Of a DNA stretch of 64,000 nucleotides, positions 11,179 through 53,326 are shown in pieces. The stretch comes from a virus, in the IMG/VR virus record IMGVR_UViG_3300050821_009780, positions 1 through 64,000 of that record; one strand, given 5' to 3'. Every line of letters starts with the position of its first letter. Position 1 is the stretch's first letter. Below the pieces are notes generated by a model. That model was not told the origin of the DNA. It saw only the letters and a program-made list of their open reading frames with translations, and ran no database searches. Made by a program: the position numbers and the translations under genes.

Positions 11179-12282
11179 CTATAACTTGGCCTGAGCCAAG
11201 TTTATTTCCCTTTCGTCGGGCAGCACGGAGAAGAACAGGAACCCGCCCGACTCGTCGGTGGTCTGCGCCCCCGAGCTGTCCGCGACCGGGCCGGCCTGCC
11301 AGGTCAGCTTGTGGCCGGTCAGCTTCTCCGCGTGCGACTGCGCCTCGGCCGGGGTGGCGAACTCCCCTTCCACTTTCGCGGTGCGGTGCCCGCCGCCGGA
11401 CTGGTACAGCTCCCAGAAGCGCTCGGCGTGCCCTTCAGCGTCGTCGGCCGGCACAGCGGAATCCTCGCTGATCTCGTACCCGCGCGAGGACTTCATTTTC
11501 TCGGCCAGCTCCTCGACCTCGACCGGCCACACCAGGCAGGTGTCGTTCCCCGTGCCCGTGATGACGTAGCGGATGCCCGTTTCGCTATCCGAGAGAGCAT
11601 TGGCCTTCTCCACCGTCAGCGCCCGCGCGCTGCTCGCCTTGTCCTTGTCCGGGCGGCCGATGCGCAGCACCACCCGGCAGGCATCTGTCAGCCCCTTGCT
11701 GCCGGCGGTCGCGCCCGACTTGACCGAATGGTGCGTCAGCACCAGCGCTGCGCGCTGCTTGGCCGCGAACACCTCCAGCGGGTCGATGACGGCCCGCGCC
11801 CCCTTGTTGGTGGCCAGGTTGACCGACGACACGGCGTACAGCGGGTCGATGACGATGAGCCCCACGTGCCGCCCGGTCAGCTGCTCGACCTCGGCCACGG
11901 CGCGCTGCAGGGTGCCGTCGTTCACGCTCTCGGGCAGGGTGAAGCGGGTGCCGTCCGCGAACACGGTGAGGTTGAACACCAGCGCCTGGTCAGCCCCAGC
12001 GGCGGTCAGACGCCACGCTACGGCCTCGTTGGGGTCATCCTCGGGTGCAACCAGGATGACGGCCTCCGGCTCGCGTACGGCGCTCTCCGGCTCGCCGGGG
12101 AAGGGCCGGCCCGTCGTCACCCGCGCGGCCATGTCGATGGTCAGCAGCCCCTTGCCGGTGCCGCCGGGGGCCACCAGCAGCGTGACGTGCCGGCGGAGGA
12201 ACCACCCCTCCCACAGCGGGTCCACTTCCTTGGTCGGAATATTGGTGAACGGGACGGCCAGAAGCTTGCTCACGTCGGTCAT
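11179..12282 (-). CDS. AAA_25 / RepA-like (SF4-type) helicase-ATPase
   Basis: Walker A APGGTGKG, acidic ILVAPEDD, Walker B LIVIDP, and the motifs LTHHSVK and GSKGL..ACRVVL. No N-terminal primase domain is visible. Confidence 0.8.
   Translation of the reverse strand: MTDVSKLLAVPFTNIPTKEVDPLWEGWFLRRHVTLLVAPGGTGKGLLTIDMAARVTTGRPFPGEPESAVREPEAVILVAPEDDPNEAVAWRLTAAGADQALVFNLTVFADGTRFTLPESVNDGTLQRAVAEVEQLTGRHVGLIVIDPLYAVSSVNLATNKGARAVIDPLEVFAAKQRAALVLTHHSVKSGATAGSKGLTDACRVVLRIGRPDKDKASSARALTVEKANALSDSETGIRYVITGTGNDTCLVWPVEVEELAEKMKSSRGYEISEDSAVPADDAEGHAERFWELYQSGGGHRTAKVEGEFATPAEAQSHAEKLTGHKLTWQAGPVADSSGAQTTDESGGFLFFSVLPDEREINLAQAKL
11184..11201. promoter_or_regulatory. Palindromic operator/promoter ACTTGG-CCTGAG-CCAAGT
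   Basis: Motif copy overlapping the helicase 3' end, 10 nt from the next ATG (11173). Confidence 0.75.
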
Positions 12283-12384
12283 GACCGGTCACCCCTCACG
12301 TAAGCCTCACGAACTAGCTCACCGGCATCCCTGTAATTCCTGCGCTGCCTGCTCATATCCTGCCTCCCCTGCTTGCCTCGTATA

Positions 12385-12402
12385 ACTTGGTACGAGCCAA
12401 GT
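12385..12402. promoter_or_regulatory. Palindromic operator/promoter ACTTGG-TACGAG-CCAAGT
   Basis: Motif copy upstream of the helicase operon. Confidence 0.75.
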
Positions 12403-12916
12403 CTTATTCCGCAGACTGCCTCCCGAGCAAAGCCAGCTTCCACAGCGCCTCGAAGGCCAGCCCGTCGGTCACCGCCTGCTCACCGGAGGTCGGCACTTCC
12501 GCCATCCTGCGCTCCAGGTAGCGGAGCGCCTGGTTCGGTGTCATGTCGCTCATGCGGACGGTGCCTCCTCGGGCTGGACGTGGTTCGCGTTCATGACCTC
12601 GACCATGCGCAGCGCGCACGCCGCACAGTACGGACCCCACTTCATGCCGTCGTCGATGTGCGGGTAGACACGCCAGAGCGCGCCGTCCCACAGCAGTGCG
12701 CGCTGGTCGGTCGTCTGAATGAGGCAGTTATGGCACGTAGTCGCCTCGGCTCCTGCCCGTTCCGCGTAGCGCGGGTCGCAGTCGATGATGAACGGGCACG
12801 CGTCATCGAAGACGCAGGTATCAGCCGCATGACACCGGCTGGCCTTCGCCTGGTCCAGGGTGTCGCCTAGGTTGTCGTCGCTCATGTTGTTGCTCCCCTT
12901 GCCTTGAGACAAGTCT

Positions 12917-12950
12917 AGCAGGGCACTTGACTTTGGCCAAGTGCCCTGCT
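12917..12950. promoter_or_regulatory. 13-bp inverted repeat enclosing a variant operator (ACTTGA-CTTTGG-CCAAGT)
   Basis: AGCAGGGCACTTG-N8-CAAGTGCCCTGCT. A second variant, CCTTGC-CTTGAG-ACAAGT, lies at 12897-12914. Confidence 0.6.
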
Positions 12951-13320
12951 GACGTTACGGTTCGGTGTGCTGCTTGACTTCGTTGCGGACGCTCAGTGCC
13001 AGCGCGATGCCGCCGATGCCGGCGTCAAACCTGAAACCGGACTCCGTGGATGACAAGCCGCACCTTGTCGTTCATGCGCGCGGTGAACTCGAAGGGAACC
13101 TCGTGCAGCCCCTGGTTGCGCCTACGGGCAGCCTGGTCCCTGTTACGCTCAGTGGCAGCCAGGGCCAGCGGATGGCGCTCAGCTACCTGCTCGCGCCACG
13201 CAACATCGCGCTGCTCTTGCGCGGCTTCCTGCAGTTCCTCTTCGGTGAGACTGTCGTCTAGGTACATGGCTGCGACCTTTCGCCCCGGCCCGGCTCCCCC
13301 GGACCTTCGTGCTCAGTATA

Positions 13321-13338
13321 ACTTGGCTTGAGCCAAAT
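13321..13338. promoter_or_regulatory. Palindromic operator/promoter ACTTGG-CTTGAG-CCAAAT
   Basis: Motif copy with the same flanks (TATA...TATTCC). Confidence 0.7.
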
Positions 13339-16224: not shown

Positions 16225-16295
16225 GGGAGCGGGACCGGGCGGGGACTGTTGTTTTCGCTGTCCCCCTGTGCCCTGTTCCCCCTGCGCCCCGTATA

Positions 16296-16411: not shown

Positions 16412-16999
16412 TCACTTGAAGTGCCGGTCCGCGTCGGCCAGCAGGAACCGCAGCCGCCCCGCCAGCCGCAGCACCGTGCGCTCGCGCACGGTCGCCCAGC
16501 CGCCCCGCAGCTTGGTGTGCAGCGACGCCTCGTCCAGCTCCAGCGCGGCCTTCAGCAGCTGCGCCATGAGGTCGTCCCACAGCGGGACGGGCACGCTGTC
16601 CCCGGTCACATCCGCCGCCCGCCCGCCGGACCGCTGAATCATCTCGGCGACGTAGTGCCGCTGGAACTCGGACGGGAACTGGCGCCTCAGCTGCAGCAGC
16701 GCCGCCTGGCGGGCGGAATCGCGGAGGTGCCGCAGCTCGACGTTCTCCGGGATTTCGCGGATCTTGCGGTTGTACTCCTGGTTGGCCTCCCGGCACCCGC
16801 AGGTGCCCGCCGCGAGCGGCCATCCCCAATCCCCGCTGCGCTGGCGCTTGTGCTTCTGGTAGCCCCGGTTGGTGCCGTGCCGGAACTTGGCCTTGGGCGA
16901 ACTGAACGTCTTGCCGCAGTCGCCGCAGTGCACCTTGCCGCCCGGCAGCTTGGTGCGGTTCTTGGCATGGCGGCACGGCCACTGCTTGGTGGTGGGCAT
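16412..16999 (-). CDS. Zn-binding protein with an HGT..GY..H..CxC motif (putative regulator)
   Basis: ATG at 16999; CRH..CGDCG and RHGTNRGYQKH...TCGCREAN motifs, common in actinophage DNA-binding proteins. Confidence 0.55.
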   Translation of the reverse strand: MPTTKQWPCRHAKNRTKLPGGKVHCGDCGKTFSSPKAKFRHGTNRGYQKHKRQRSGDWGWPLAAGTCGCREANQEYNRKIREIPENVELRHLRDSARQAALLQLRRQFPSEFQRHYVAEMIQRSGGRAADVTGDSVPVPLWDDLMAQLLKAALELDEASLHTKLRGGWATVRERTVLRLAGRLRFLLADADRHFK

Positions 17000-17196
17000 A
17001 ACAGCTGATCTCCCGTGACGTAGTCGCGCAGCCAGCCGAACGTCTGCTCGCGGCCGGACCACTCCGCGTTGAACGGGGACCAGCCGGCCAGGGCGCGGTC
17101 GGTGGGCTGCTGCCACAGCAGCAGCATGCAGCTGGCGGCACTGACATCCAGCTCGGGCTTGCGGCGCAGGACATAGGACGGAAGCTCGAAGTTCAT
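16999..17196 (-). CDS. Hypothetical 65-aa protein whose natural end is a TTA codon overlapping the next ATG
   Basis: MNFELPSY...DYVTGDQL-TTA(17001-16999). The formal ORF runs on as junk sequence to 16687. Confidence 0.5.
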
Positions 17197-17212: not shown

Positions 17213-17374
17213 TCACAGCGCCTTGAGCGTGTTGTAGGTATCCCAGTGCTCGTGGCAGCAGAAGTACAGGTAGCCGCCGTGCTCGTAGTGCGTGTCACGG
17301 CGCGCGTCGCCGTCCATGCGGCCATCCCGGTCCTCGACCGGCTTCTCGCACAGCCAGCAAAAGAAGACGCTCAC
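17213..17374 (-). CDS. Small TRASH/YHS-like metal-binding protein
   Basis: MSVFFCWLCEKPV...YEHGGYLYFCCHEHW. It is below the ORF-track cutoff and was translated by hand. Confidence 0.5.
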   Translation of the reverse strand: MSVFFCWLCEKPVEDRDGRMDGDARRDTHYEHGGYLYFCCHEHWDTYNTLKAL

Positions 17375-17376
17375 CG

Positions 17377-20227: not shown

Positions 20228-20464
20228 TAAATCGGTGAAGTGCCCGGCGTTGGCCTGCCGGTAGTGCGCCAGCTCCGCCGGCAGGTCGGCCGCGTAGTAG
20301 ATGGCGTCAGACGGGCAGGCGGGCTCGCACGCCCCGCAGTCGATGCACGACTGCGGGTTGATGAACATCATGCTGGTGCCCTCGGCCAGGCAGTCCACCG
20401 GGCACACGTCCAGGCAGGAACGGTCCAGGCTGTCCGCGCAGGCGGCGGTCACCACATAGGTCAC
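20228..20464 (-). CDS. 7Fe/dicluster ferredoxin (FdxA-like)
   Basis: MTYVVTAAC..DRSCLDVCPVDC..CIDCGACEPACP. The domain ends at ...HFTD-TTA; the formal stop is at 20105. Confidence 0.85.
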
Positions 20465-21444: not shown

Positions 21445-22188
21445 CTATAAGCTGAAAACGATCGTGGTCGAGAAGACCCAGCTCGCGCCTGATGCCTTCG
21501 TTCCAAGGCTGGAGATCTTGTGGTTGATCATGGACCGAAGCGTGGTGAACACATGCCCGGAGGCAAGTTGGGTACCTGCCGCGATAGTGGTCCCGGTCGC
21601 CCAGCACCACTCGTTCCAGGCGAAGTTGGCGTTGCCCGACGCGAACGTGCACTGATTGTTGATAGTGGCCGGACCGGTAATAGACGGGAACGTCGCATCC
21701 GACCCCTGGTAATAGGCATTGGCCGTGTTGTCGGAGCCGAGCGCGGTATCGGAGGTGGTCGCGGCGGTCGCAGTGGTGCCAACGCCGACGACGGTCTGCG
21801 TGGTGGTCATCGTGGTGGCAGAGCCGCCGCCTGTGCAGTAGTTGATGATCTGGGTGAGTCCGCCGTTGACGAGGATGTTGCCGTCGTCGTAGGCGTACCC
21901 GTCCTCCGGGCCCTCCGGGAACAGCTCGCGGAGCCAGTTGCCGTGCAGGTCGTGGACGTAGTGCGACTTCGCCTCACCGTGTGCACGGTGACTGCGCAGG
22001 GTGGCGACGGGGGCACCATCCCGCTCGCCTAGGGGGATGTGCTTCAGCAGGGGGAGGCGGCGCCAGCCGATCGCATCCGCCAGCTTCTTCTCCGCCCAGC
22101 TCGTCTGGTCGATCGAGTACTTCGAGATCGTGCTGTACGGGTGCCAGTGGATGTGCTCCGCGCACTCGCGGTCGATCAGGGCAGGCAT
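21445..22188 (-). CDS. Minor virion/tail protein
   Basis: GNILVNGG...VGVGT..TAA..SDTALG...TFASGNANFAWNEW...LGTKASG pattern, resembling phage tail-collar/baseplate-like proteins. Ends TTC AGC TTA TAG. Confidence 0.65.
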   Translation of the reverse strand: MPALIDRECAEHIHWHPYSTISKYSIDQTSWAEKKLADAIGWRRLPLLKHIPLGERDGAPVATLRSHRAHGEAKSHYVHDLHGNWLRELFPEGPEDGYAYDDGNILVNGGLTQIINYCTGGGSATTMTTTQTVVGVGTTATAATTSDTALGSDNTANAYYQGSDATFPSITGPATINNQCTFASGNANFAWNEWCWATGTTIAAGTQLASGHVFTTLRSMINHKISSLGTKASGASWVFSTTIVFSL

Positions 22189-30793: not shown

Positions 30794-33700
30794 TCACCCC
30801 CTTCCGCTGAGGTAGGCAAGCTTGTTGCTCGCCCGGGTGATGGAATCAGAAGGCTTCTCGGGGACCGGATTAATAATGTTGACATCGCCGGTGACGTTGA
30901 CGCCGACCCGCGACTGCGCGGCCCCGGCCTCGGACAGCGACCGGGACGGCTCGGCCTTGCGGGTGCTGCGGTCCATCCCCCGGCCGAACGCGTCGGGCAG
31001 GGCCACCGGCATGTAGCCGTTGGTGCCGGGCACCACGATGGAGAACCGGCCGGCCACGTCCCGCAGGGTGGGCGTCACCAGCCCGCCCCCGGCGAAGCCG
31101 AGCCCGCCGTCGCCGGGGGAGACGGGCGTGCCGGGGCCGCCGAGAATCACCTCGGGGGTGAGGTTCTGCGGCGCGACCGTGACGGGGTAGGTGGTGCCGA
31201 CGGGACCGGCGGGGGCGGGGGTGCCGCCGCCCCCGCTGCTGCTGCCGAACGCGTACTTGGTCAGCGGGCTGACCGGGCCCCAGCCGCCGGCGTTGCCTGC
31301 CTGCATCTGCCAGTCCACGGCGGTGCGGTCCCCGTAGATGCCCAGGGTGGTGGGGGAGTGGACGTGGCCCTGCCAGATCTTGCCGCCGTGCACGTCGTCC
31401 ACGGCCAGCATGTAGTCGGTGGCGCCGGAGACCGGCGGCCACTTCCAGGTGACCTGGTCGCCCGCGTTGGACACGGCCACGTGGCCGGGGAAGGTCTGCG
31501 GTTCCCGGCCGGCCGAGGAGGACCCGGTCACCCCGGTCAGGGTGTAGGCGTGCACGGCGCTCGGCGGCCCCCAGCCGCGGCCGTTCAGTGCCTGCAGCTG
31601 CCAGCTGACGATCTTGTGGCCGTCGAACGCGAGGGTGACGGGCGACGACACGAAGCCCTGCCACAGCCCGTCGGTCGGGCCGGCGGTCACCGTCAGCCAG
31701 TAGGCGGTGGCCCCGCCGACGGGCGGGAACTTCCAGGTGACGGCGTAGCCCTTGTTGGTCACGGTGACCGGGCCGGGCGAGGTGCGCGGCGCCCCGGCGG
31801 GGGTGGCGTAGCCGGGCTTCGGCGCGGTCGTGCCGGGCGGGGACGGCTTGGGGTTGACGGGGGGCGGGGTGACGGGGGGCGGGGGCGGCTGCTTGGTGGC
31901 CGGGGCGGGGACGGTGCTGGCGATCCCGCCGCTGGCCAGGCCGGGGATGATCAAGCCGCCGGCGGCGTTGTTGGGGATGCCGGCGATGGACGCGGCCATC
32001 GCCAGGCCGGCCGGGTGCACGTCGTTGACCCCGGCCCGCTCCACCCCGGTATCCCAGTCCTGGGCGGCCGAGTTGAGCGAGGTCTCCCCCTCCATCGTGG
32101 TGATCGTGGCCTGGTCCCCGCTGGAGTTGACGAAGGCGATGATGGCCGGAAGCTGGGTCTTCATGCCGCCGCTGAAGTCGGCGTCGGAGATGGCGGAAGG
32201 CGGGGTCCAGCCGATCAGGCCGCGCCCGCCGGAACCGGACGCGGCCGGGTTCCAGCCCGACTCGCCGTCAATGGACGCCACCGCGCCGGCGGCGGCGACC
32301 TTGTGGCCGCCGAACAGGTTGGCCAGCAGGTAGCTGTAGCCCTCCTTGGCGTTGGCCAGGTCGGACCCGGTGGCCCCGCCGGCCGCTGCCGCCGCCGCGG
32401 CGGCCTTGGCGGCCTGGGCGGCGGAGATGGCCGCCGTGAGCGCGGCGGTGTTCAGGTTCAGGTTGACGGCGAAGGCGGCGCCGCCGGAGGCCAGCCCGGG
32501 CACCATCAGGGGCACCATCATGCTGGACCCGTCGCCGCCGACCGCGCCGCCGCCGGCCCACTGCTGACTGGCCGCGATGCCCCGGCTGCCGGCCCCGAGC
32601 CAGGAGTCGGCCTGGTTCAGGCGGTGCAGGTAGCCGGGGCCGTACTGCTGCTCCAGCGCCATCCGGGCGGACTTGCGGACCACGAACTCGCCAGGCATGA
32701 GCATGGCGTGCACGCTGTCGTGCTCCCCGGCCCCGGCGACGGAGCCGTGCTGCGCCTGGCGGCTGGCCCCGATGGGGCCGCCGGATGCCTTGACGGTGAC
32801 GGTGACGTTGCCAGACGCGTTCTTGATGCCGGTGTCGATGTCGTTGGTGATGGCGGTCTCGGCACCCTGGGCGGCGTTCCCCAGCGCGGTGGTAATCGCG
32901 GTGCCTGCCTTGGTGACGGCAGCGGGCAGGGTGCTGTTGAAATAGGTATTCATCGGGGTCTCGACCTGACCCACGAACACCAGCATGGCCGAGGCCCAGG
33001 CGGTGCCCCAGGTCGAGACCATCTTGGTGAGGTAGCTGTTCATGGTGACGGTGAAGAACAGCCCGAGCGGGGTCTCCACGGCCTTCTGGAAGTCGGCGGC
33101 GGCGTTGGACCAGGTAGAGGTCCACAGCGCAGCCGTCTTGCTGAAGTACCCGGCGATGGTGACGGTGAAGAACAGCCCGAGCGGGGTGATCACGGCCTTC
33201 TGGAAGTCGCCGGCGGCGTTGGACCAGGAGGTGTTCCACAGCGAGACGGCCTTGTTCAGGTACCCGGACATGGTGACGGTGAAGAACAGCCCGAGCGGGG
33301 TCTCGACCGCCTTCTGGAAGGTGCTGGCGGCGGTGGACCAGGTAGAGGACCAGAGCGCGCCCGCCTTGCTCAGGTAGCCGGCCAGGGTGGAAGTGAAGAA
33401 GGTCTGGACGGGGGTGACGACATCCTTGGCGAAGCTGGTTCCCGCCCCCGTCCACAGCGTGCTCATCTCGGTGGTGGCGCTGCCCGCCCACCCCTTGAGG
33501 CTGCTGGTAAAGAACGTCTGCACGGGCGTGGCGACGTCCTTGGCGAAACTGGTTCCCGAGCCGCTCCAGAGCGTGTTCATCTCGGTCGTGGCCGAGCCGC
33601 TCCAGCCCTTGAGGCTGGAGGTGAAGAAGGTCTGGACCGGGGTAACGACATCCTTGTTGAAGCTGCTCTGCGCGCCGGACCAGAGCGTGCTCATCTCGCT

Positions 33701-36700
33701 GGCGGCGCTGCCGGTCCACCCCTTGAGGCTGGAAGTAAAGAACGTCTGGGCCGGGGTAACGACGTCCTTGGCAAACGCGCTCTGCGAACCGGACCACATG
33801 GTGGTCATCTCAGAGCTGGCGCTGCTGCTCCAGCTCTTGAGGCTGGAGGTAAAGAACGTCTGGACGGGGGTGACGACGTCCTTGGTGAACGCCCCCTGGG
33901 AACTCGACCAGGCGGCGCTGACCTCGGTGCCCGCGCTGCCGGTCCAGCCCTTGAGGCTGCTGGTAAAGAACGTCTGCGCCGGGGTGACGACATCCTTGGT
34001 GAACGCGGCCTGCGAGCCAGACCAGGCGGTGCTGACCTCGGTGCCCGCCGTTCCCGCCCACCCCTTGAGACTGGAGGTAAAGAAGGTCTGGGCGGGGGCG
34101 CTGACATCCTTGGCGAACGCGCTCTGCGACCCGGCCCAGGCGGCGGTCACCGAGCTCTGCGCGGTCTTGGCCCAGCCGGGGAGCTGGCTGGCGAAGAAGG
34201 TCTTCGCCGGATCTGCGACGTTCTTGGTCAGGGCCGAGCCGGAAGCGGTCCACAGGGCGGCGACCGAGGCCTGCGCGGCCTTGACCCAGCCGGGGAGCTG
34301 CCCGGTCAGGAGGTTCTTGACCGGGGTCGTCAGGTCGGCGTTGAGCGAGGTGCCGGCCTTGGTCCACATGCCGGCCAGGATGGTGGAGTCCGCCGCGACG
34401 TCCGCCTTGAGCACGCCGCCGAACGCCGTGTTGAACTCCACCCCCATGAGGGTGGCGGCGACCTTCCACAGGTTCGCAATCTGCCCGAGGGCGGTCTGGA
34501 ACTCCCCGACGAGGCCGCCGCCCGCGAAGTGCTGCACGCCGCCCTTGACGGTGCCCGCGGCTGCGGGCTGCGGACCCTGCTTCTTCGCCTGCTGGGCGGC
34601 CATCTGGGCCGGGGTGAGCTGCGCCGTCGTCCCCTTGTGCGCCTGGTTGAGCTGGTCCAGCACGCCGGGGCCGTGCTGCGCCTTCAGCGCGTCGGCGGCG
34701 GGCTTCTGCAGGACGAACTCGCCGGGGGTGAGCATCGCGGGCACGGTGTCGCCCTGGCCCTGGCCGGGGACGTGGCCGCCCGCCGCCTTCTTGACCGGCG
34801 GGGGAGGGCCGCCGCCGGGGAGGCCGGGGAGGCTGCTCCCCGCCCCGGCCGGGATGGAGCCGAAGAGCGTGTTGAAGCTGGCCGCGAAGTTGGCCGCCGC
34901 CTGCGCGCCGGCCTTCGAGAACGCCTGGGTGAGCGGGTTGGTGTTGGCCTGCGGCGTGATGATGGTCTTGTTGATGGTGGCGATTGCCTGGTTGCTGAAG
35001 CCCAGCGAGTGGAGCAGGGTGTCCAGCTGCGTCAGGTCGGTCTTGGGACTGATGTTCAGCGAGTTGAGGAAATCAATCTGCTGCTTGTTGAGGTTCAGCT
35101 TGTCGTAAGTCTTTTGCAGGTTGTCCTGGAACGTAACGGTGCTTGCCCCGACGACCAGCCCGTCGATAATCTTGATTTGCGCTGTGGTAAGACCCAGGTT
35201 GCTCAGCAGCTTGTTAACCGACTGCAAATTAGCACCCGGCTTAATCTGCATCTGGTTGATTTTATCGATTATGCCCTGGGGAAGACCGAGGTCATGGAGA
35301 ACGGTGTTCAAGTCGTTCTGGAACGGGGTCATATTCGGGTTGATAACCTGAGCATTGATTTTCCCGATTTCCGTCGGGGTCAGCTTCAGGTCGGACAGCA
35401 TTTTATCCAGCTGGGTCAGGTCGGTCTTGGGCGTCAGCTGGAGCTTGTCCACCGCCTGTATCTGGGCCGGGGTCAGCCCGATCTGCTTGAAGAACGTGTT
35501 CCAGGCGGTGAAGTTGGTCCCCGGCCCGATGATCAGCTTGTTGATGGCGGCGATGTTCTTCTGCGATATCCCGAGGCTCGACAGCCAGGCATCGTAGACG
35601 TGGAAGTCGGTCTTCGGCCCGATCGTGAACTTGTTGATGGCGGTGATCTGGGCCGGGGTCAGGCCGAGCTTGACGTAGTAGTTGTCGAAGGCCTGCGCCC
35701 CGACCGGCGGCGCGATGACCATTGCATCGATCTTGGAAATGGCGGCCGGGGTCAGGTGCAGCTGGCTGAGCAGCTTGTTGATGTCGGTAAGGTTGGCGCC
35801 CGGCTTGATAACCAGCGCGTTGACGGCGGATATCTGCTTGGGAGTGAGCTTCAGGGTGTTGAGGTAGGCGTCGATGGCGGTCGTGCTGACCGGGACGTGC
35901 ATAATGAGCTGGTTGATAGCGGCGACCTGCGGCGGAAGGAGCCCTATCTTCGCCAGCATGGCGTCGATGGCGGTCACGCTGGTGGTCGGGGCAATCCGCA
36001 GCTTGTTGATCGCAGTTATCTTCTGGATGGACACGCCCGTGTGCGCGGCCAGCTCGTCGATTCCGGCCCAGTCCACCTGGGGCTTGATGACCTGCTTGTT
36101 GGCCGCGACGACGTTATCCGACCAGAGGGTCAGCGCAGTCTGCCGGGCCACGCCCATCGCGCTCAGGGTGGTCAGGAACTCGGCCTTGGCCTGGGCCATC
36201 CCCGTCGGGGTGGTCCCGTACACGGCAATCAGCGCGTTGGCGATGGCGTTGGCACCGGTGATGTCCTGGGGGGAGATGATCCCCTGCTTGAGCTGATCCT
36301 GGGCCGAGTGGATGGTCGTCTCGAAGTTCGCGACGGCCTTGGTCATGCCCGGCATGTTGACCAGCGCCGCGCCGATCGCCTGGTTGAGGTCGGTGTTGAC
36401 GGCGGCAGCCAGGTTGATGGTGTCCTGCTGCAGGTTGGACGACGAGGTCTCCAGGTACCCGACCTGCTTGTTGAGGTCCGCCGTCGTCTTGGACGCCTGC
36501 TGGTTGCCGCCCGACCACTTCACCAGGGCCGCGTAGGTGTCCGCCCCGGTGTAGCCCATCTGCTGCGCCAGGGCGTAGGCGGCGTTGGTCGCCTCCTTCG
36601 AGCCGTCGCCCTGGGCCAGCAGCACGTTGACCATGTCCTGCCCGGCGTGCTGCAGGGAGCCGTAGGACGCGGCGGTGTTGCCGGCGGCGGCGTTCTGCAG

Positions 36701-39700
36701 CTGGAGCTGGCTGTAGAGTCCCTGCGCCGCAGTGGCGTTCTGCTCCCAGGACTGGCGCAGCGTGAGGCTGTTGGCGTTCAGCCCGGTCATGGACGCGCCG
36801 GCCGCCTTGGCGTTCGTGCTGACGGTGTTGATGCCCGTCAGGAACGTCTCCAGCTTGGTCTCGCCGCCGGTGACCATGGTGTAGAACTGGGTGAAGTCGC
36901 CGGTGAGGGTGGTGATCTGGCTGTTGGTGGTCTCGCTGGCCAGGGCGACGGCGTCGATGGAGTTGCCGACCTGGTTCATGTGAGTCGAGACCTGGTAGCC
37001 GGCGACCCCCATGTTGGTCCAGCCGGTGACCAGCGCGTTGACCTTGCTTATCTGGACCGACATGCTGTCGGTGACCTTGACCCCGGCCAGGTCCATCAGG
37101 GCGAACGCCTGGTCGCCGGTCACCCCGAACTTCTTCATGCTGTACGAGACCGTCTGGATGGCGGCGTCCCACCGGTCGTTATCCGCGACCAGGGCCGCGT
37201 AAGCGGCGCCGCTCTGCGCCTTCAGCTGCTGGAACGACCCGAACAGGTCGGTGATGGCGCTCTGGAAGTGCCCCGAGGTGATGTCGCCCCAGAAGCTGAC
37301 GGCACCCCCGGCTCCCGTCTGGTTGACCGGCTGGTTGAGCTCCTGCCGCAGCACGCCGTACTGCGTGCCGAGCTTCTGCATGTCGGTCTGGAGCTGACTG
37401 AACCCCTGGGCGGCGTTGAGGTTGTTCAGCTGGGTGTTCATGGCGGAGATCTCGGCCGGGATCGCGCCGCTGGCCTTGTTGAACTGGTAGAACTCGTAGG
37501 CCGCGCCGCCGACGGCACCGGCGATGGCGAGCCAGGCCCCGGCCGAGATGCCGGCCAGCGCCCCACCGATCTTCTGGATGGTGCCGCCGAGCCCGGCCGC
37601 CTCCGGCTCGGCGTCCTTGGCAGCGCCGCCCAGCTTGGCGACGCCCGACTCCAGCTGGCTCACGTTCGCGCCGCCGACCAGGGCCATGGAGGCGGTGGCC
37701 TTCTCCACGCCGCCCAGCCCGGACATCGCGGCCTGGGTCTCCGGGGTAATCTTCCCCAGGTCGGCCGCCAGGCCCTCGGCGCTCTTGCCGGATGCCGCGA
37801 CGGAGATGGCCGCGGCGGCAGCCTGCTTGTCGGTCAGCCCGAACGCGTCGGCCAGGGCCTGGACATCGCTGTTCTGCGACGTGACCTTGACCATCTGGTC
37901 GTAGGTCAGGCCCAGGTTCCCGGCCATGGCCAGGGCGGCGCTGTCGCCCTTGGCGAACAGGGTGCCGATGTTCTCCAGTTCCGGGGTGAGCTGCCCCATC
38001 TGGATCAGCTTGGCGTTGGACGCGCCGACCGAGCTGGCGAGCCCGCCGAAGACGTTGCTGCCGCCCGTGATCTTGGCGACCAGGCCGCCGAACTGGGTGA
38101 TGAGGGTGCCCGTGTACCGGGTCAGGTCGATGAGGGCGGTGGAGAGCAGCCCGCCGTAGTGGACGACGGCGAAGACGGCGATGCCGAAGGCAATCACCTG
38201 CGGGCCCATGGCGTTCATGGCCTTGGCCAGCAGCGAGAAGGCGTAGGCGAGTCCCTCGAAGAGCAGCTCGGAGACGTGGGTCATCTGCCCGGCCTGGAGG
38301 AACTCGGCCCCGATCTTGAGGATGGAACCGCCGATGGAGCCGAGGATCTTCAGGTCGTTGACGGCGGTCTCGATGAGACCGGACAGCTGCCCCGAGTGGG
38401 AAGTGAGCGCCTGATCTACCTTGATGAAGGTGTCGGTGATGAAGGTGCCGGTCTTCTGGGCAACCCCCTGCATCAGGCCGAGGACGCTGGTGAACGTCTG
38501 GCCGAACGCCTTGATGGGCGCGGTCTTCTGGGTCAGGGCGTCGATGGCGGCCCCGTACATGGTGACCACGGTCGGGGCCATGGCCGCCTGGATGGACCGG
38601 ATGGTCACCGGCATGGGCTTCATGGTCGAGTCGAGCGTGCCCATCTTGGTGCTCAGCGGGCCGATGTGATCGGTGCCGAGCACGTCCGCGCCGGTGCCGA
38701 GGGCGTCCAGCGCGGTGTGCAGCCCCTGGACGTGCGCGAGCAGGTCCAGGACGGACGGCTCGGCGGCGACGCCGAACGCGCCGAGGGCGGTGCCGGCGGC
38801 GATGACCGCGGGCACCAGGACGATGAAGAAGTCGATCAGGGTGTGCAGGGCGACGGCCCACACGCTGATGGTGGCGGCGAACGGGATGCTCTTGAACGCC
38901 CCGCCGAACAGGGTCAGGTCCTTGGTCCAGCCGCCCCAGGCGGCGATGGCGAGGTTGACCAGGCCGGTGGTCTTGGCTACGGAGGCGCCGCCCTGGTCTA
39001 CGGACTGCGTGGCGCCATCCTGCGCGTTCTTGACGAGGAGGGCGGCGGCTGCCGCGTTCTTGGCCGCTTCGGCAGCGCTCATCGTGGACTGGCCGAGCTT
39101 GTCGTAGCTGCCGGAGGCCCCGCTGACGGCGTCCCCGGCCTGCTGCGCGGCCAGCGCCTCGGCGACCATGCTCTTGGCGAACTGCGCCGCCGTCGGCGGC
39201 CCCTGGGCCTGGAGGCCGAACCAGTGCTCGTACTGCGCGGCGTTGGACTCCAGCGCAGCACCGTTCGCGTTCAGCGCGGCATCGGCCTGCTGCACCACCG
39301 GGATGAACCGGGCCATGGACAGCTCGCCGGACTGCACGGAGCCGACGAACCGGGTCCAGTCCACGTCGTTCGCGGCACTGCCGACCTGCTTCAGCGCGGC
39401 GGCGTCGGCCATGGCAGCGGCGGCGTTGGCGTTGAACCCCTTGGCCGAATCGTCGGCGTCGGTGCCGGCCGTCTGGGCGGCCTTTCCCGCGGCCAGCAGC
39501 GCGGCCTGGGTGTACAGCTGGCGGTTGCCCAGGTCGGTGGTGGCCTGGCCCATCTTCGCCAGCTTGGCGGACGCCTCGTCGGCCGACATGCCGGTGGCCA
39601 GGAACGCGTCGGCCAGCTTCCTGGCGGCGGCGGCCTGGATGCCGGCGGAATCACTGGTGAACTTGGCGGCGTTGGAGGCCCGCGCGGCCTCGTAGTCGAA

Positions 39701-41781
39701 GGAGTCGCCCGCCTGGTGAATCTCGTCGGCGGCACCGTGCACGGCCCCGCCCAGCCGGGTCCAGGCGGCATCGTCGTTAGGGTTGGGTGCCGACTTGTCC
39801 ACGTCACTGCCCAGCGTGGACAGCACGGCCTCAGCCTGCCGGACAACAGGGATGAACCGGGCCATGGACAGCTCGCCGGACTGCACGGAGCCGACGAACC
39901 GGGTCCAGGCGGCATCATCCGCCGGGTTGGGCGCGGCCTTGGCCAGGGCGGCGGCTTGCTCGGCCAGGGCGGCGTCGGCCTGCTTCACCACCGGGATGAA
40001 CCGGGCCATGGACAGCTGGCCGGACTGGACCAGAGCGATGAACTTCGCCCAGTCGTCGTCATCCGCCGGGGTGGGGACCGGGATGTCCGGCGGAGGCCCG
40101 CCGCCGCCCCCGGCGTGGCCGGCCGTGACCAGTTCCTCGGTGACCAGCTCGGTGACGTGATCGTTGGCGTGAAGGCGGGCCTGGAACGCCATCCACTCGG
40201 CGATGGCCTTGTTGATGCCCGTCAGCTGGACGGCGGTCTTGGCGTAATCGGGAACCTCGTTCAGCTTGGCAATCCAGGCTTCCAGCTGGGCCTTGGCCTG
40301 GTCGTCGGTGAACCGGGCGGTGGTGTCGAGCACCTCGGGGACGATGCCCAGGTCGCGGAGCCAGATCTCCAGGTCTCCCTCGGCCGCTGCCGCGCTGAAG
40401 ACGGCGTTCACGGTGACGCTATCCGGGAGCGCCTCCAGCTGGGCTATCAGGGCGGTGAGATCGGCCTTGGCCTTCTCGTCGTCGAAGACCACCCGGACGG
40501 TCACCTCGGCGGGAACGGACCGCAGCTGGGCCAGCAGCGCGGCGAGGTCATCCTTGGACGCCCGGTCGTTGAAGACCGCGTTGATGGTGACGTTCTCGTT
40601 CTCCGGGGTCTTGCCGACCGCGATAAGCGACGTGGTGATGTGCTCGGGGATGCTGTGGAGCACGGACTTCCACAGCGCGACGTCGGCCAGGCCCTGCTCC
40701 GGGTCGGCCTTCAGCTCGGTGGTAACCGAGGTCGGCACCCCGGCCAGGGCGGAGTTCAGGGCCTGCGCCCCGGCGACGCTGCCCTCCTCGCCCAGCTGGG
40801 TAACGGACTTGTGGGTACCCTCGATCGCGTTGTAGTAGGCGAGGGCGGCGTCGGTGTTGGACTTGTACAGCGCCGCCCGGCGCTCCAGCTCGGCGTTGAA
40901 GTCACGGTACAGGGCGGTCTGCTTCTGCAGGTACTGCAGGTACTGGTCGGCGGTGAAGTACCCGGCCCACTCGGCACGGTTCATGAGGAGCTTCTGGGTG
41001 TACTCGGTCTGGCGCCACGCGTAAGCCTGCTGGGGCGTGGTGAACATGAGCCAGCGCTGCCGGTTCAGCAGCGTCTCGTACTCCAGCTCCTTGCGCATGT
41101 CGGCCAGGTGCGTGCCCATGTCCGACCGTCCGCCGAACAGCGACTGCTCGTTGTACCGCTTGTAAGCATCCGACGTCGTGTTAACGGCGGCGGTCTCATC
41201 CTTTAGTACACTTATTTCTTCCTTGCGGACGGAGATAAGCCGCTGCTCGTCCGATATCTCGTCAACAACAGCCCGGTCCAGCTTCTCCAGCGTGCTGGTG
41301 ACATTCCGGTACGCCTCGTCGGTCGCCGTGACCTTGTTTACCGTCTCGTCCCGGACGGTAAACGAAGAAATAGTATCCTTGTACCGCTTATAGGACTCAC
41401 TGGCCAGGTCAACGGCCGACACTTCTTCTTTAAGTCCGTCAAGAACAGAACTGTGGTAGCTCTTGTAAGAAGCAGCAAGGGCCTCAATCGAATTCTTCTG
41501 CAGCTTCAGCGACTCGATTGAGGTGTCGCTGTAGTCCTTGGATGCCGCCGCCAGCGAGTCAAGTGCAGTCCGCTCCTCGGTGAGCTTGCTGATCTCATCC
41601 TTGTGAGCGTCTACCAGCTTCTGGTACTCGGCAGTCTGCGCCTTAGCGGCGTCGCCTCCGGCCTTTCCCAGTGCCTCCAGGGCAGCCTTAGCCTCGGCTG
41701 CCTTGCGCATGAGGTCGCCGAAATCGGCAATTGCTTTATAAAGGACAACTCAGGAGGTAACCAGTATTCCTCTCCGGCCAT
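30794..41781 (-). CDS. Tape measure protein (~3,650 aa) with a phage-tail-lysozyme-like domain and two FN3-like domains; 5' end frame-interrupted
   Basis: Lies after the chaperones and is Ala-rich helical with 38-aa Trp/Phe repeats, two DTVPAMLTPGEFV-type motifs and a GESGWNP..GRGLIGWT lysozyme-like motif. The main ORF is 30794-41710; the likely N-terminus MAGEEYW from ATG 41781 is in another frame. Confidence 0.9.
32990..34330 (-). repeat. Tandem ~114-bp (38-aa) repeats in the tape measure gene
   Basis: The unit F-x-KDVVTP-x-QTFFTSSLKGW recurs at ~114-nt spacing (e.g. 33421, 33650, 33764, 33878, 33991, 34105). Confidence 0.85.
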
Positions 41782-41845
41782 AACTCAGCCGCCAGGGAAT
41801 ACTGCAACAGGGTGGAATTCACCCCGGCTCACCTCCCTCCTCCAC

Positions 41846-47714: not shown

Positions 47715-47731
47715 TTGCGACCGACCTCCCT

Positions 47732-47986
47732 TTAAGCGGTGGCACTCCGCCTGCTGCGGTGCAGCTGCCTTTCCCTCGGCGTCGTGCCTCCCCATATTCC
47801 ATACGCCTCCGGGTAGCCGATGGCGTAGTCCCGGCATGCCAGCCGGACCGGGCACGCACTGCACACCGCCTTGGCGGCGATGACCCGCTTGCGGTAGCGG
47901 CGGTCGGTGAGGTCGGTGAACTCGATGAAGAACATCTCGGTCGGCAGCCCGGTGCAGGCCGCTCCCTCTGCCAGGTGCTGCAGCAT
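47732..47986 (-). CDS. whiB: WhiB-family Fe-S transcription regulator
   Basis: AAC..FF..AKAVCSACPVRLACRDYA..GIWGGTTPRER (four Cys plus the GIWGG turn). Confidence 0.9.
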   Translation of the reverse strand: MLQHLAEGAACTGLPTEMFFIEFTDLTDRRYRKRVIAAKAVCSACPVRLACRDYAIGYPEAYGIWGGTTPRERQLHRSRRSATA

Positions 47987-48503: not shown

Positions 48504-49808
48504 CTACCGCACCGGGACGGGGCCGAGTTCCTCCTCGCGGCGGCAGGCCATGGCGGTGTCGTAGACCTGCGCGCCGACGCCGTTGCTGGTCACCTCGTCG
48601 CGGATGCGGCGGAAGAGGTTCTCCACCACCACCGACCAGTCGCACAGCTTCGGGATCAGCTCGGCGGCCTTCTGCCCCTTATCCCTGGCCTCGCTGCGGT
48701 GCGTGTAGATGTGCCAGATGGTCTCGGCGAGGTGCTCCACGCTGACCTTGGCATCGTGCGCGCCCCACGGGCAGTATCCGAAGGTGGCGCCGAGCTTGTA
48801 GTCCAGCGGGTAGGCCCAGTCCCCGCCCATCCACATGGTGTGGCCGCCGAAGTTGGTGGCCGCGACCGCCCCGGCGGTGGACATGAACTCCAGGGCGGGC
48901 AGGTTCTTGCCCTCGCCGCGGCTGGGGGCGAGCAGGCAGTGGCTGGCGGCGTACATGTCCTTGACGCCCTGCACGTCCAGGGACGACACGAACACCTTGA
49001 TGCCGGCGTGCGCGAACGGCAGGTTCAGCTCAGGGAACAGGGTGCCGGGAAGGCTGGTGTGCAGCGCGAGGCGGGCATCGGCGAACGCCCCGCCCTTCTC
49101 GTCCTTGAGCTTGTGCCACGCCTCGATGACGAGCCACGGCTGCTTGCGGGCGTTGAGCGCCCCGTGCATGAGGAACTGGAACCGGTCACTGTGCCAGTCG
49201 CGCTCGACCGGGCGCCACAGCGAGGAGTCGTAGCCGCCCTGGAGGATGCCGGACTTGACGGTCTTGGGGATGAACGGCGCGAACGAGGCGAGGGACACCG
49301 GGTCGTAGCCGAGCACCAGATCGTACCAGCGGAGCCGCTCGCGGAAGCTGGACTTCTGCTTGGCGTGCGGGTACAGCCCGGAGGCCGGGGGCTTCCGGCA
49401 GTTCCGGCAGCCGGGGACGCCCAGCTCGTTCTTGCCGTTCTCCTTCAGGTGCCTGGCGCACGGGCGGAGGATGGGCACGCCATCCTCGCGGAACTCCGGC
49501 GGCGGGGCGAACTCCCACATGGACCAGCCGACCGCGACCCGGGCGCTGGCCCGGGCCTCGCGGGTGATGAGCAGGTGGTCGGGGTCCCAGTGGTTGATGA
49601 GCAGGTCCCACGGGCCGTACAGGGTCTTGCCGAACAGCGGCATGAGGTCGGCCGGGATGGGCACATCCAGCCAGGTGGGCTGGACGTACACGTCGCAGCC
49701 CCAGCGGTGCAGCGCGCGGACCAGGCCGAAGCCGTCGTTGCCGTATCCGGAGTACTGCGAGAAGGGGGCTAAAGCCTTAACACAGACCTTCAAAGGCCGG
49801 TTAAGCAT
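48504..49808 (-). CDS. GT-B (GT4-like) glycosyltransferase
   Basis: SGYGNDG, WSMWE, GALNARK and LLAPSRGEGKNLPALEFMS (EX7E motif). Confidence 0.85.
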   Translation of the reverse strand: MLNRPLKVCVKALAPFSQYSGYGNDGFGLVRALHRWGCDVYVQPTWLDVPIPADLMPLFGKTLYGPWDLLINHWDPDHLLITREARASARVAVGWSMWEFAPPPEFREDGVPILRPCARHLKENGKNELGVPGCRNCRKPPASGLYPHAKQKSSFRERLRWYDLVLGYDPVSLASFAPFIPKTVKSGILQGGYDSSLWRPVERDWHSDRFQFLMHGALNARKQPWLVIEAWHKLKDEKGGAFADARLALHTSLPGTLFPELNLPFAHAGIKVFVSSLDVQGVKDMYAASHCLLAPSRGEGKNLPALEFMSTAGAVAATNFGGHTMWMGGDWAYPLDYKLGATFGYCPWGAHDAKVSVEHLAETIWHIYTHRSEARDKGQKAAELIPKLCDWSVVVENLFRRIRDEVTSNGVGAQVYDTAMACRREEELGPVPVR

Positions 49809-49814
49809 TGGGCA

Positions 49815-51134: not shown

Positions 51135-51220
51135 CGCAGCCTCCCCAGGTGCGACTGAAGACTTCCCGGACCGGGCTCCCCACCACGGGGCCCGGTCAGG
51201 TTGACTCTGTTTCTACACTC

Positions 51221-51326
51221 TAGTATCCCTCAGTGTCAACGGTTCAGGGATACTAAGGGCTACTGAGTAGGCGGCGATCACCCGAAGTTGACTCAAGACA
51301 ACGTTGGAACTAGGCTCAAGCCTAGC
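51221..51326. promoter_or_regulatory. Divergent control region with a 10-bp inverted repeat and two variant operators
   Basis: TAGTATCCCT-N15-AGGGATACTA (51221-51255) encloses a minus-strand TTGACA. AGTTGA-CTCAAG-ACAACG lies at 51286 and ACTAGG-CTCAAG-CCTAGC at 51309. Confidence 0.55.
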
Positions 51327-51411
51327 CGGTACCGCTCACGGCTGAGCACGGCCGGCTCCGGAATTAGATTCCTCCGGACCCTGCGGGAATCTTGAACAGA
51401 GATGTACCCGA

Positions 51412-51855
51412 ATGACAGGAACCATCACCACCAACGCCCCCCTGCGCGGACTGCTGCGCACCGCACGGCGCCACACGCGGCTGTCGCAGAAGGAAGCGGC
51501 AGCGAAGGCCGGGGTGTCCTCGGCCTGGTGGAAGCGCGTGGAATCCGCCTACGAAACCTCAGTCTCCGCCGAGACCCTGGCCGACATGCTCGACGCCGTC
51601 GGCGTCCTGCCGGGCCACCTGGACGACCTGGGCGAGCACGTCCTGGCCGAGCTGATCATTGCCCGGCAGTCGTTCCGCGACACGGTCACCTCCTCCCAGG
51701 AAAGCCTGGAGGAGTACCTCATGAACGCCCCCGCTGCGGACGACCTGCGGCACGAACTTATCACCTACGTCCGCACGAGAAGCGTGCTGCGTACTATACG
51801 TAGTGACCCGTTCACCGACCAGTTCCATCCCGATTCGGCGGAGAAGCACAGATGA
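51412..51855 (+). CDS. XRE-family HTH transcriptional regulator
   Basis: LLRTARRHTRLSQKEAAAKAGVSSAWWKRVES..SAETLADMLDAVGV. Confidence 0.85.
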   Translation: MTGTITTNAPLRGLLRTARRHTRLSQKEAAAKAGVSSAWWKRVESAYETSVSAETLADMLDAVGVLPGHLDDLGEHVLAELIIARQSFRDTVTSSQESLEEYLMNAPAADDLRHELITYVRTRSVLRTIRSDPFTDQFHPDSAEKHR

Positions 51856-52334
51856 TATTCAACGCAGTCACCGCCGTGACACTCGCCCCGACGGCAGTCA
51901 GCGCATCCTACTCGGCCCTGCAGGCAGAGACGAGACTGCTCATCCAGCTGAGCTTCTACGCCGCCCTGCTGTTCCTGGTGCTCTACACCATCCGCACCGC
52001 CTGGTGGCACACCGTGCACGGCCGGACGCTCGCGGCGCTGGCAGCCGCCTTCATCATCGTGATGCTGCGCGTCATGCTGGTGTACTGGCACCTCCTCGGC
52101 TCCCCCGACAAGGCCCCCGACGCCCTGGACTGGGGGTCCACCAGCTGCCTGCTGCTGGCTCCGCTGGCGTTCCTCACGATGAGCTGGCAGCTGGCGCGCA
52201 AGCCGGTCCGGCGCTGGGCGGCGAAGCTGCGGCCGAGGCACCCGGCACCGGGCGACGACCCGCTGGGTCCCGGGGCACCGGAGAAGAAGCTGAGCGAGTA
52301 CCCGGAGCGCAACCCGCGGCACAGCCAGGACTAG
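51852..52334 (+). CDS. Three-TM membrane protein, similar in layout to 43738-44127
   Basis: Coupled to the XRE gene (ATGA); FLVLYTIRTAWWHTVHGRTL motif; three TM helices. Confidence 0.65.
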   Translation: MIFNAVTAVTLAPTAVSASYSALQAETRLLIQLSFYAALLFLVLYTIRTAWWHTVHGRTLAALAAAFIIVMLRVMLVYWHLLGSPDKAPDALDWGSTSCLLLAPLAFLTMSWQLARKPVRRWAAKLRPRHPAPGDDPLGPGAPEKKLSEYPERNPRHSQD

Positions 52335-52849
52335 GACAGCGCGTCGGTCCAGCCGCCGATGTACACCGCGTAGACCGCGCTCCCGGACAGCATCCAGTCG
52401 CCGTCGGGCACGGCTGTCCAGTCCGGCTCGGTGAGCAGCGCGCAGCCGAAGGTCACCAGGTCGCCCCAGGCGACGGTGTCCGCATCGCGGCGGTGCAGGT
52501 GGTTGTTGACGGCGGTGAACAGGGCGTTGGCCCGGTTGGCGGTGTCGGAGCTGGTGCGGATGACGCCCCCGGCCTGGTCGCGCACCGGGTCGGCCCAGAT
52601 GTCCACCCGGAGCCGGCGGAATCGCTGGCTGCCGCCCAGGGGCGGCGCGGACCAGCCGCCGTAGTCGGAGCAGACCACGGCCAGCTGGCTGGTGCCCTTC
52701 ATGTTGACCAGGATGTCCCCGGCGAACAAGTACGGCTGCCCCTGGTTGCCGCCCACCGGGTCGGACAGGCTGAAGCTGCCGAGCAGCGAGGTCACGTCGC
52801 TGAACTGGGACAGGTACTTCCGGCCGCCGGTGCCGACATCGTCAGGCAC
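52331..52849 (-). CDS. Tail terminator/completion-like protein
   Basis: GTG at 52849; FRRLRVDIWADP..RANALF..HLH; position in the neck module. Confidence 0.55.
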   Translation of the reverse strand: MPDDVGTGGRKYLSQFSDVTSLLGSFSLSDPVGGNQGQPYLFAGDILVNMKGTSQLAVVCSDYGGWSAPPLGGSQRFRRLRVDIWADPVRDQAGGVIRTSSDTANRANALFTAVNNHLHRRDADTVAWGDLVTFGCALLTEPDWTAVPDGDWMLSGSAVYAVYIGGWTDALS

Positions 52850-52985
52850 GGTACTCGTCCCCCGCGCGCCTGACCGCCTGGGCGGTGCAGGCCGCGCAGC
52901 GGCAGCGGAAGAAGCGCCGCCGCTTCCGGGGCGGCGGCTCCTGCTCGGGCTCCTGCTCGGGCTCCTGCGGTTCCTCGTCGGCCAT
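52842..52985 (-). CDS. 47-aa peptide (acidic EPEQ repeats, basic patch, CxCxxC)
   Basis: The ATG at 52985 overlaps the TTA of the upstream gene. Confidence 0.45.
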   Translation of the reverse strand: MADEEPQEPEQEPEQEPPPRKRRRFFRCRCAACTAQAVRRAGDEYRA

Positions 52986-53326
52986 AACGTCCCTACCAGG
53001 ATGCCGGTGTCGGTGCCGTCGCCGGCAACCCAGGTGAACTCGCCCTCGGCCCCGACCGGCCGGTGCATCATGCAGCGGCAGCAGTAGGTGGCCCCGTAGA
53101 AGCCGGGCCGCCGGGCGTACGTCTCGCACAGCGCCAGGCCCATGGTGGTGACCGCGCCGCACTCCGGGTCGTGGTGGAGGTAGGAGCGGTACACCGGGCG
53201 GACGAACCCCTTGGCCCGCTCCTCCTCGCTGAGCACCAGGTACTTGCTGTTCATGCCCTTGGGCTCGCGGTCGGCCCCGTGACCCAGCTCCGGGTCGTCC
53301 GGGTCGGTGGTCAGTCCCGTACCCAT
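52985..53326 (-). CDS. Zn-binding hypothetical protein ending at a TTA codon
   Basis: YLVLSEEERAKGFVRP..H..CG..TTM..ETYAR.P.FYGATYCCRC..H...LVGT-TTA. The formal ORF reads on into the tail terminator gene. Confidence 0.6.

Follow-up and report, generated by a model that had tools for sequence, protein, structure and literature searches.

The UUA codon (TTA in DNA) is probably not read as leucine during infection in the phage lineage described here, where it would act as a stop signal or as a jump signal for the translating ribosome. The lineage is represented by the IMG/VR virus record IMGVR_UViG_3300050821_009780 (143,503 bp; here G000), whose first 64 kb form the window, the whole stretch of DNA that we analyzed. 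An earlier note on this DNA, made from its letters alone, had proposed that UUA serves as a stop or take-off signal, and that proposal is supported by the stop codons that orthologues carry, by the absence of internal TTA leucine codons and by the structure of short TTA-headed gaps within essential genes. A sequence check located every TTA site that the earlier note had listed, each on the minus strand and at its position.

G000 contains about nine in-frame TTAs, of which seven lie at gene ends and two at the heads of apparent hop sites; none encodes a conserved internal leucine. Gene calls made with a codon model contain only 6 in-frame TTAs in 42,663 codons, and TTA is the last sense codon in 3 of these 6 cases, compared with 1 of 25 for CTA, 0 of 60 for ATA and 1 of 45 for AAA, and the placement that the earlier note described is confirmed, at a level well outside chance. 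Because the codon-model caller penalizes TTA, the scan was rerun with TTA scored as neutral. Each TTA with a good upstream coding signal then marks the end or the change of a reading frame (11184, 17001, 20230, 52987 and 141306), and the rerun brings in the sites at 17001 and 20230, which are missing from the codon-model gene calls. The rarity of TTA fits the bias in third-position GC content (GC3), with a TTA/TTG ratio of 0.021 in the family against 0.013–0.147 for the other NNA/NNG pairs; the anomaly is the position of TTA. The gene-end sites in G000 are as follows, together with the weakest listed site, which stands last.

52985..52987, minus strand: gene-end TTA in GGG ACG TTA TGG, closing gene A (53326->52988, 113 aa)
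16999..17001, minus strand: gene-end TTA in CAG CTG TTA TGC, closing a 65-codon gene (ATG 17196)
20228..20230, minus strand: gene-end TTA in ACC GAT TTA ACC GGC C ATG, codon 79 of a phage ferredoxin gene (GTG 20464)
21448..21450, minus strand: gene-end TTA with TAG directly after it, closing a 247-aa gene (21445-22188)
11182..11184, minus strand: gene-end TTA followed by TAG, at the end of an AAA_25 / primase-helicase-like gene (11179-12282)
117212, outside the window: gene-end TTA in AGG TTA TGA; orthologues have TGA/TGA
141306, outside the window: gene-end TTA, 12 codons ahead of a stop
41781..41783, minus strand: TTA in GAG TTA TGG, overlapping the ATG of the tape-measure head

One of these sites closes gene A. 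The TTA at 52987 shares bases with the start codon (ATG, 52985) of a 47-codon gene, and both the coding frame and GC3 change exactly at the TTA, although its own frame stays open for 217 more codons. That frame coincides with the frame of the next-but-one gene, and translation table 11 consequently yields a single false open reading frame (ORF) of 348 codons. Orthologues of gene A stop at the codon aligned to this TTA, reading ..ILVGT-TGA in four relatives (L003, L004, L005 and G015) and TAA in a fifth (L008), and over all aligned loci the tally is five TGA and one TAA; the orthologous junction in G015 is TGATG, where G000 has TTATG. A Synechococcus phage homologue of gene A is a stand-alone protein of 112 aa. 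The TTA at 17001 has the same layout. It overlaps the ATG at 16999 of the next gene (16412-16999), which is preceded by a GGGAG Shine–Dalgarno sequence about 11 nucleotides (nt) upstream, and the frame that carries the coding signal is 0 before the TTA and +2 after it, leaving a read-through frame with poor GC3. Read-through at 17001 and 52987, described earlier as junk, is indeed that: the next in-frame stops lie 103 and 217 codons further on, across the next gene.

At 20230, the TTA lies 7 nt before the next gene's ATG (20220), the frame switches at the TTA, and the in-frame stop is 40 codons further on. The ferredoxin gene that it ends carries a Fer4 domain. Homologous phage ferredoxins are 78–106 aa long and several finish just after an N..FF motif, the position of this TTA, lengths that are compatible with a gene end here without being decisive. 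The codon aligned to the TTA at 21450 is itself a stop in two relatives (TAG in G015, TGA in G008), so that, with TGA or TAA opposite 52987 and TGA opposite 117212, homologues bear true stops where G000 has TTA, in a comparison that the earlier note had proposed. No orthologue alignment extends to the C-terminus of the gene ending at 11184, and the search for an orthologue of the gene upstream of 17001 found none.

The weakest listed site, at 41783, closes a possible 13-codon mini-ORF with a GTG start (GTG 41822, with GGAGGAGGGAGG before it), which is without comparative support. This mini-ORF recalls the UUA-ending upstream ORF of adpA (PMC10732093).

For the family comparisons we used a set of about 60 related IMG/VR contigs (1.68 Mb), found via the capsid protein. 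Seven relatives were retrieved at full record length: G006–G009, G013 and G015, at 140–151 kb, and G012, a 61.6-kb fragment. The first relative recovered, G001, shares just 7 proteins with G000 and was left out of the set.

We quantified termination with a continuation test over eight family genomes, which asks, for each codon preceded by 30 codons of stop-free coding signal, whether the same frame is still the best one over the next 30 codons. Coding continues past TTA in 1 of 32 cases (0.031), compared with 0.023 for TGA, 0.070 for TAA and 0.079 for TAG. The lowest value for any other sense codon is 0.31 (AGA), and typical codons reach 0.5–0.77. All three standard stops thus still terminate in these genomes, and TTA behaves like them. 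The sole continuing TTA (G008:132001) was rejected as a coding exception, since its frame is antisense and the "orthologues" of that frame are broken by stops. Two other apparent exceptions (G012:57430 and L116:9060) were likewise set aside as antisense frames. Within TTA-neutral coding cores there are 10 TTAs in 275,000 family codons, and every one of them either closes a gene whose successor uses the same frame or stands upstream of a start. The earlier observation that TTA is absent from ordinary gene bodies therefore extends to the family, where no conserved mid-gene leucine is encoded by TTA. A further candidate for an internal TTA, G009:127436, proved to be a shared gene end, since its G007 orthologue has TTA too and similarity ends there.

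The orthologue test reads the same question from the other side. The protein upstream of each TTA was aligned to the other contigs of the 1.68-Mb set, and the codon opposite the TTA was recorded for 33 sites. That codon is a stop in 123 alignments and lies within one codon of a stop in 98 more; it is TTA in 5 (with another 4 within one codon) and a sense codon in 12, and 49 further alignments ended short of the TTA. Individual sites show the substitution directly. GTT TTA TGG at G006:32314 faces GTG TGA TGG in at least 10 contigs, the TTA at G015:25910 faces TAG or TAA in 6 of 6 relatives, and the TTA at G009:43411 faces TAG, TAG, TGA and TGA. Several TTA ends recur in different phages (three sites in the pair G007 and G009, and others in G006 with L126 and in G008 with L135/L136), although the flanking proteins are only about 60–70% identical. 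TTA ends common to such diverged phages can hardly be sequencing errors or recent mutations. The gene-end TTAs also favor overlap with the next start: 12 of 28 in the family have the TTATG form, compared with a roughly estimated 8% of normal stops that overlap the next start by one base, and a T follows directly in 16 of the 28.

The second class of sites consists of seven TTA-headed gaps, 6–14 nt long, that split tape-measure, portal and glycosyltransferase genes which are continuous in relatives. All seven begin with TTA directly after a take-off codon. A landing codon that is identical or synonymous to the take-off codon stands just ahead of the resumed coding sequence in six of the seven, and the seventh pair, TGG/TGA, is a near match. 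The gaps in G000 involve the following elements.

41761..41781, minus strand: tape-measure head, seven codons ATG GCC GGA GAG GAA TAC TGG, in a frame that differs from that of the body
41750..41760, minus strand: tape-measure gap of 11 nt, TTACCTCCTGA, at the 5′ end of the gene
30794..41749, minus strand: tape-measure body, including the 3638-codon gene 30794-41710
49767..49775, minus strand: glycosyltransferase hop site, GCT TTA GCC, codons 12–14 of the GT4-type gene 48504-49808 (Pfam Glyco_trans_1_4)

In uninterrupted orthologues the first 9 codons are homologous to the tape-measure head, and the 13 codons ahead of the first ATG of the body (41710), conserved at the protein level, lack a start codon. 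With the gap in square brackets, the 5′ end of the gene reads ATG GCC GGA GAG GAA TAC TGG [TTACCTCC TGA] GTT GTC CTT TAT AAA: the take-off codon TGG (41763-41761) is followed by TTA, the landing codon TGA occupies 41752-41750 and coding resumes with GTT at 41749. The encoded peptide is MAGEEYW [gap] VVLYKAIADFGDLMRK, and the start is unbroken in G006 and G008 (M-AYEGPEYW-YVIYKA(I/V).DFG.LMRDA). A −1 shift at this gap would hit a TGA. G009 has a 14-nt gap at the same position, TGG [TTAGATCGCTT TGG] TAT, and a second one 8 codons on, GGT [TTAACATTCA GGT] GAC; at the place of this second gap G007 has GGT [TTACCCA GGT] GAC. Just upstream of the tape-measure gene, on the minus strand, the ORF of a tail assembly chaperone and a second ORF share about 200 nt (42286-42948 / 41829-42542), which is the usual location of the G/GT −1 frameshift.

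In the glycosyltransferase, about 25 of about 25 orthologues read K-V-L-V-K-S-P-F-S, and G000 reads K-V-C-V-K-A-L-A-P-F-S (AAG GCT TTA GCC CCC). A 6-nt hop from GCT to GCC over the TTA would yield K-A-P-F-S, the length found in the orthologues. The two hop sites suspected in the earlier note, at 41760 and 49772, are thus short TTA-headed insertions relative to uninterrupted orthologues, complete with take-off and landing codons, of which the pair at 41760 is the near match. The portal gaps came from a homology-based search with junction peptides. They read ACC [TTAG ACC] ACG in L116 and GGC [TTAACCT GGT] GTC in L133 (and the same in L149), and the joined portal peptides match 17–18 other contigs at 95–100%. 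A permissive scan for take-off and landing pairs had returned 158 candidates, mostly false, and was superseded by this search.

Judged by their sequence, these gaps carry the classical signature of translational bypassing, and we infer that protein is made across them from the essentiality of the genes and from the conserved sequence on both sides. No RNA structure is common to the gaps among the five sites that we folded. The G009 tape-measure region folds more stably than its shuffles (z −2.85; 88235-88325, equal to L203:8235-8325), in a hairpin that pairs the first-gap filler GATCGCTTTGG with the downstream coding sequence CAAGGCGATC; the other four have z values from −0.5 to +1.5. Ordinary −1 or +1 frameshifting was considered and rejected as an explanation, since the TTATG junctions have no X XXY YYZ motif and, as read from the printed sequences, 4 of the 7 gaps contain a stop that a plain +1 or −1 shift would reach. 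Fusion of neighboring genes by a frameshift at TTATG was rejected as well: the P-site tRNA would be unable to re-pair, and the downstream genes have their own Shine–Dalgarno sequence and ATG.

The tRNA content of the family is uneven. G006, G007, G008, G009 and G013 carry 31–37 tRNAs each, G015 carries one, and no tRNA gene was found in the whole 143,503-bp record of G000. The earlier note had proposed a check for tRNA-Leu(UAA), and on the phage side this tRNA is in none of the family tRNA sets; the sets of 31–37 tRNAs contain Leu-CAA and Leu-CAG and mostly Leu-GAG too. The annotated tRNAs of Microbacterium phage Magritte, the nearest cultured relative of G000, follow the same pattern, without Leu-UAA. 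TTA gene ends are most numerous in the two tRNA-poor genomes, G000 (7) and G015 (10). Among the 33 tRNAs of G007 (IMGVR_UViG_3300036790_000419), ARAGORN reports one with the anticodon TCA ('SeC-tca'), which could be UGA-reading. As for release factors, five relatives and G000 were searched. The only match is an RF-1 (GGQ) domain at 57 bits in G008 (17239-17445, plus strand), inside a 322-codon open frame, and no release-factor gene was found in the four other relatives.

Taken together, these features suggest the following mechanism. When a UUA arrives in the ribosome's A site, one of two outcomes would follow. At gene ends the protein would simply end there, often with the next AUG overlapping as UUAUG, the counterpart of UGAUG. 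Where a codon matching the P-site codon lies 3–11 nt downstream, the peptidyl-tRNA would release, slide and re-pair, bypassing the 6–14-nt gap and restoring the orthologous protein. We favor, as an inferred cause, that UUA is unassigned or starved, in a host that would have no, or almost no, charged tRNA-Leu(UAA), which the phages in turn would never supply. At gene ends the peptide would then be freed by a rescue or drop-off route; recognition by a host release factor, ArfB-type rescue, and drop-off followed by peptidyl-tRNA hydrolase (Pth) are possible routes.

Several results weigh against UUA acting as a stop or jump signal. The rarity of TTA on its own equals what GC3 bias would produce. 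One TTA, G007:144285, aligns with GTA (Val) in two relatives with similarity that goes on beyond it, although this position is probably non-coding. TAG or TGA directly follows 3 of the 7 gene-end TTAs in G000, several TTAs in relatives have a stop 2–4 codons on, and both arrangements fit a tolerated C-terminal leucine equally well. The sites at 17001 and 20230 are without close orthologues. Neither RF-1 nor Pth family members were found in G000. Release by transfer-messenger RNA (tmRNA) would tag the products for degradation and, because the TTA-ended genes look conserved, tagging is hard to reconcile with them. The external comparisons lean neither way: Magritte, with 0 in-frame TTAs in 100 kb and a single TTATG that comes after a real TGA, neither supports nor refutes TTA as a stop, and mycobacteriophage Bxb1, the standard-code control, is a weak control because it has just two in-frame TTAs, one of them mid-gene.

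If TTA were nevertheless read as leucine, its gene ends would be tolerated losses of stops or rare C-terminal leucines, with junk extensions or fusions, and the gaps would be 2–5-residue insertions or frameshift pseudogenes. We regard this as very unlikely. A TTA frequency as GC3 bias predicts, the TTAs with a stop 0–4 codons on, the insertions in the G000 glycosyltransferase and at L133:6891, which are in frame, and two other odd junctions in G000 that lack TTA would all sit comfortably with it. But at least 18 sites would gain 20–217 junk residues, out of frame through the next gene, and random stop loss should mostly yield TGG, CGA, GGA, TCA or CAA, not always TTA. The TTA ends persist across phages about 65% identical, the frame-breaking portal and tape-measure gaps lie in CheckV-complete genomes and so cannot be pseudogenes, and the take-off and landing matches (six of seven plus the near match) are unlikely to arise by chance. 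Nor does delayed, bldA-type decoding, where reading UUA as leucine gives a functional protein, describe these sites: read-through of the gene ends produces out-of-frame junk across the next gene, and where a gap breaks the frame read-through cuts the tape-measure or portal protein short. Still harder to credit is an artefact, in which TAA or TGA was miscalled as TTA or contigs are chimeric. All of the genomes are metagenome assemblies, but the same pattern recurs across dozens of assemblies made independently from different samples, diverged relatives have identical TTA sites, the gaps represent 6–14-nt insertions rather than substitutions, and intact long genes (3638, 1874 and 1124 codons) indicate a low error rate.

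A different cause for the same stop and jump behavior deserves more weight, though we hold it to be doubtful: UUA would be recognized by a release factor, either host RF2 or RF1 with relaxed second-base reading or a phage factor. This sub-case would make UUA a genuine fourth stop in an uncultured high-GC Actinomycetota host lineage and in its phages, which would also use it for their portal and tape-measure hops. A U at the +4 position is the strongest termination context in E. coli, and 16 of the 28 gene-end TTAs are followed by T, a preference that is largely due to the overlapping ATG. TTA is statistically the same as TGA, TAA and TAG, productive release seems to be needed because the TTA-ended genes are conserved, organelles have codes in which UUA is a stop, and G008 encodes a protein with an RF-1 (GGQ) domain. 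However, no release-factor gene turned up in G000 or in the four other relatives searched, we know of no bacterial release factor that reads UUA, and efficient release would compete with the hops that the portal and tape-measure proteins require. An unassigned or starved UUA, acting as stop or take-off signal, remains the cause that we favor.

Some features of the genome provide context. G000 has 68.9% GC, and its minus strand holds about 205 of the 211 coding segments. Searches of the phage collection returned no DNA-level neighbors, and the capsid identity to Magritte is 48%. A WhiB-family gene points to an actinobacterial host, as judged from its sequence. The ferredoxin comparison gave no host clue, its top matches being at most 58% identical and spread over several phyla. 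Further reference features are listed below.

47765-47965, minus strand: WhiB-family gene (PF02467, 61.7 bits)
59860-60969: major capsid protein (phrog_29)
82663-81128 of the G000 genome, outside the window: portal protein

Two other loci on the minus strand of G000, both outside the window, have unusual junctions without TTA. At 98193-97560 (locus L097), a C5 DNA methyltransferase is split across two overlapping frames: motif VIII (..RRERIFITAW..) closes at a stop, and the LLPTPSA.. part goes on in the other frame, whose ATG precedes that stop by about 100 nt. Possible readings are a split enzyme, a frameshift and a pseudogene. At 129821-129525, an ORF runs 21 codons past the ATG of the next gene (129586); the junction is CATAATG with the TAA out of frame, and the overrun is without a TTA explanation.

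To our knowledge, the only code changes known in phages are from stop to sense, and changes from sense to stop are known only in organelles. A sense codon used as a terminator in a bacterial virus would extend the known flexibility of the genetic code, and a UUA recognized by a release factor, if true, would be the first sense-to-stop change outside organelles. UUA-triggered bypassing would turn from a single-gene curiosity, in Streptomyces phage phiHau3, into a recurrent device of a phage family, with seven short natural sites. The findings also suggest that some soil actinobacteria may leave UUA undecoded, either altogether or during infection, and such non-decoding could link phage late-gene expression to host physiology. 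For annotation the consequence is practical: gene callers using table 11 will mis-annotate these phages, with long false overlaps, fused ORFs (e.g. 52331-53377) and "broken" portal and tape-measure genes.

Text searches of the literature turned up no phage or bacterium in which TTA is reported to be a terminator and, as far as we found, the only descriptions of TTA as a stop or jump signal concern organelles and a single gene of a Streptomyces phage. In organelles, UUA is a stop in NCBI table 23, the code of Thraustochytrium and labyrinthulean mitochondria. It is also a stop in some green-algal organelles (cf. PMC12574857). The likeness is close, in that the leucine codon is missing from conserved internal positions and sits at the standard stops of homologues. 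However, organelles have their own release factors and reduced tRNA sets, whereas G000 is a bacterial virus, probably of an actinobacterial host, and TTA ends just about 1–5% of the genes in its family, alongside TGA, TAG and TAA. Phages that recode TAG or TGA to an amino acid (Borges et al., bioRxiv 10.1101/2021.08.26.457843) share the mis-calling of genes under the standard code, but the G000 family goes the opposite way, from sense to stop, with all three standard stops still terminating.

Bacteria offer precedents for an undecoded A-ending codon. Kano and colleagues are said to have found in 1993 that AGA and AUA are unassigned in Micrococcus luteus. UUA is a rare codon of high-GC Actinobacteria, controlled through bldA in Streptomyces (PMC4255298, PMC10732093). 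Both cases show that such a codon can be without a usable tRNA in a high-GC host, so that ribosomes halt. In Streptomyces, however, UUA occurs within regulated genes and is decoded as leucine after the tRNA has matured; in the G000 family, read-through would give junk, and TTA is therefore an end or jump signal and not a delayed leucine.

For the gaps, the comparison is with translational bypassing in T4 gene 60 and in Magnusiomyces mitochondria, whose bypassed elements are called 'byps'. There too, take-off and landing codons flank the gap, its first codon is undecodable (a stop or an unassigned codon), and the peptidyl-tRNA re-pairs downstream. The gaps described here are far shorter than 50 nt or 27–55 nt, no stem-loop or nascent-peptide signal common to them was found (1 of 5 folded sites stood out), and in the standard code the codon that blocks them has a sense meaning. 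The closest system is that of phiHau3 and two prophages, whose terminase gene contains coding gaps headed by UUA (Smith et al. 2013; Antonov et al. 2023, PMC10732093); bypassing of these 10-nt gaps has first experimental support (PMC10732093). In both cases an essential, conserved virion gene of a high-GC actinophage is split by short non-coding inserts (7–10 nt in phiHau3) with UUA first, uninterrupted orthologues agree with the flanks, and bypassing has been proposed to occur when UUA is undecodable. The G000 family differs in that TTA also ends about 1–10 genes per genome, a use not described in the phiHau3 work, and in that its gaps, of 6–14 nt with clear take-off and landing pairs, lie in the tape-measure, portal and glycosyltransferase genes of an unrelated family of about 125–152 kb.

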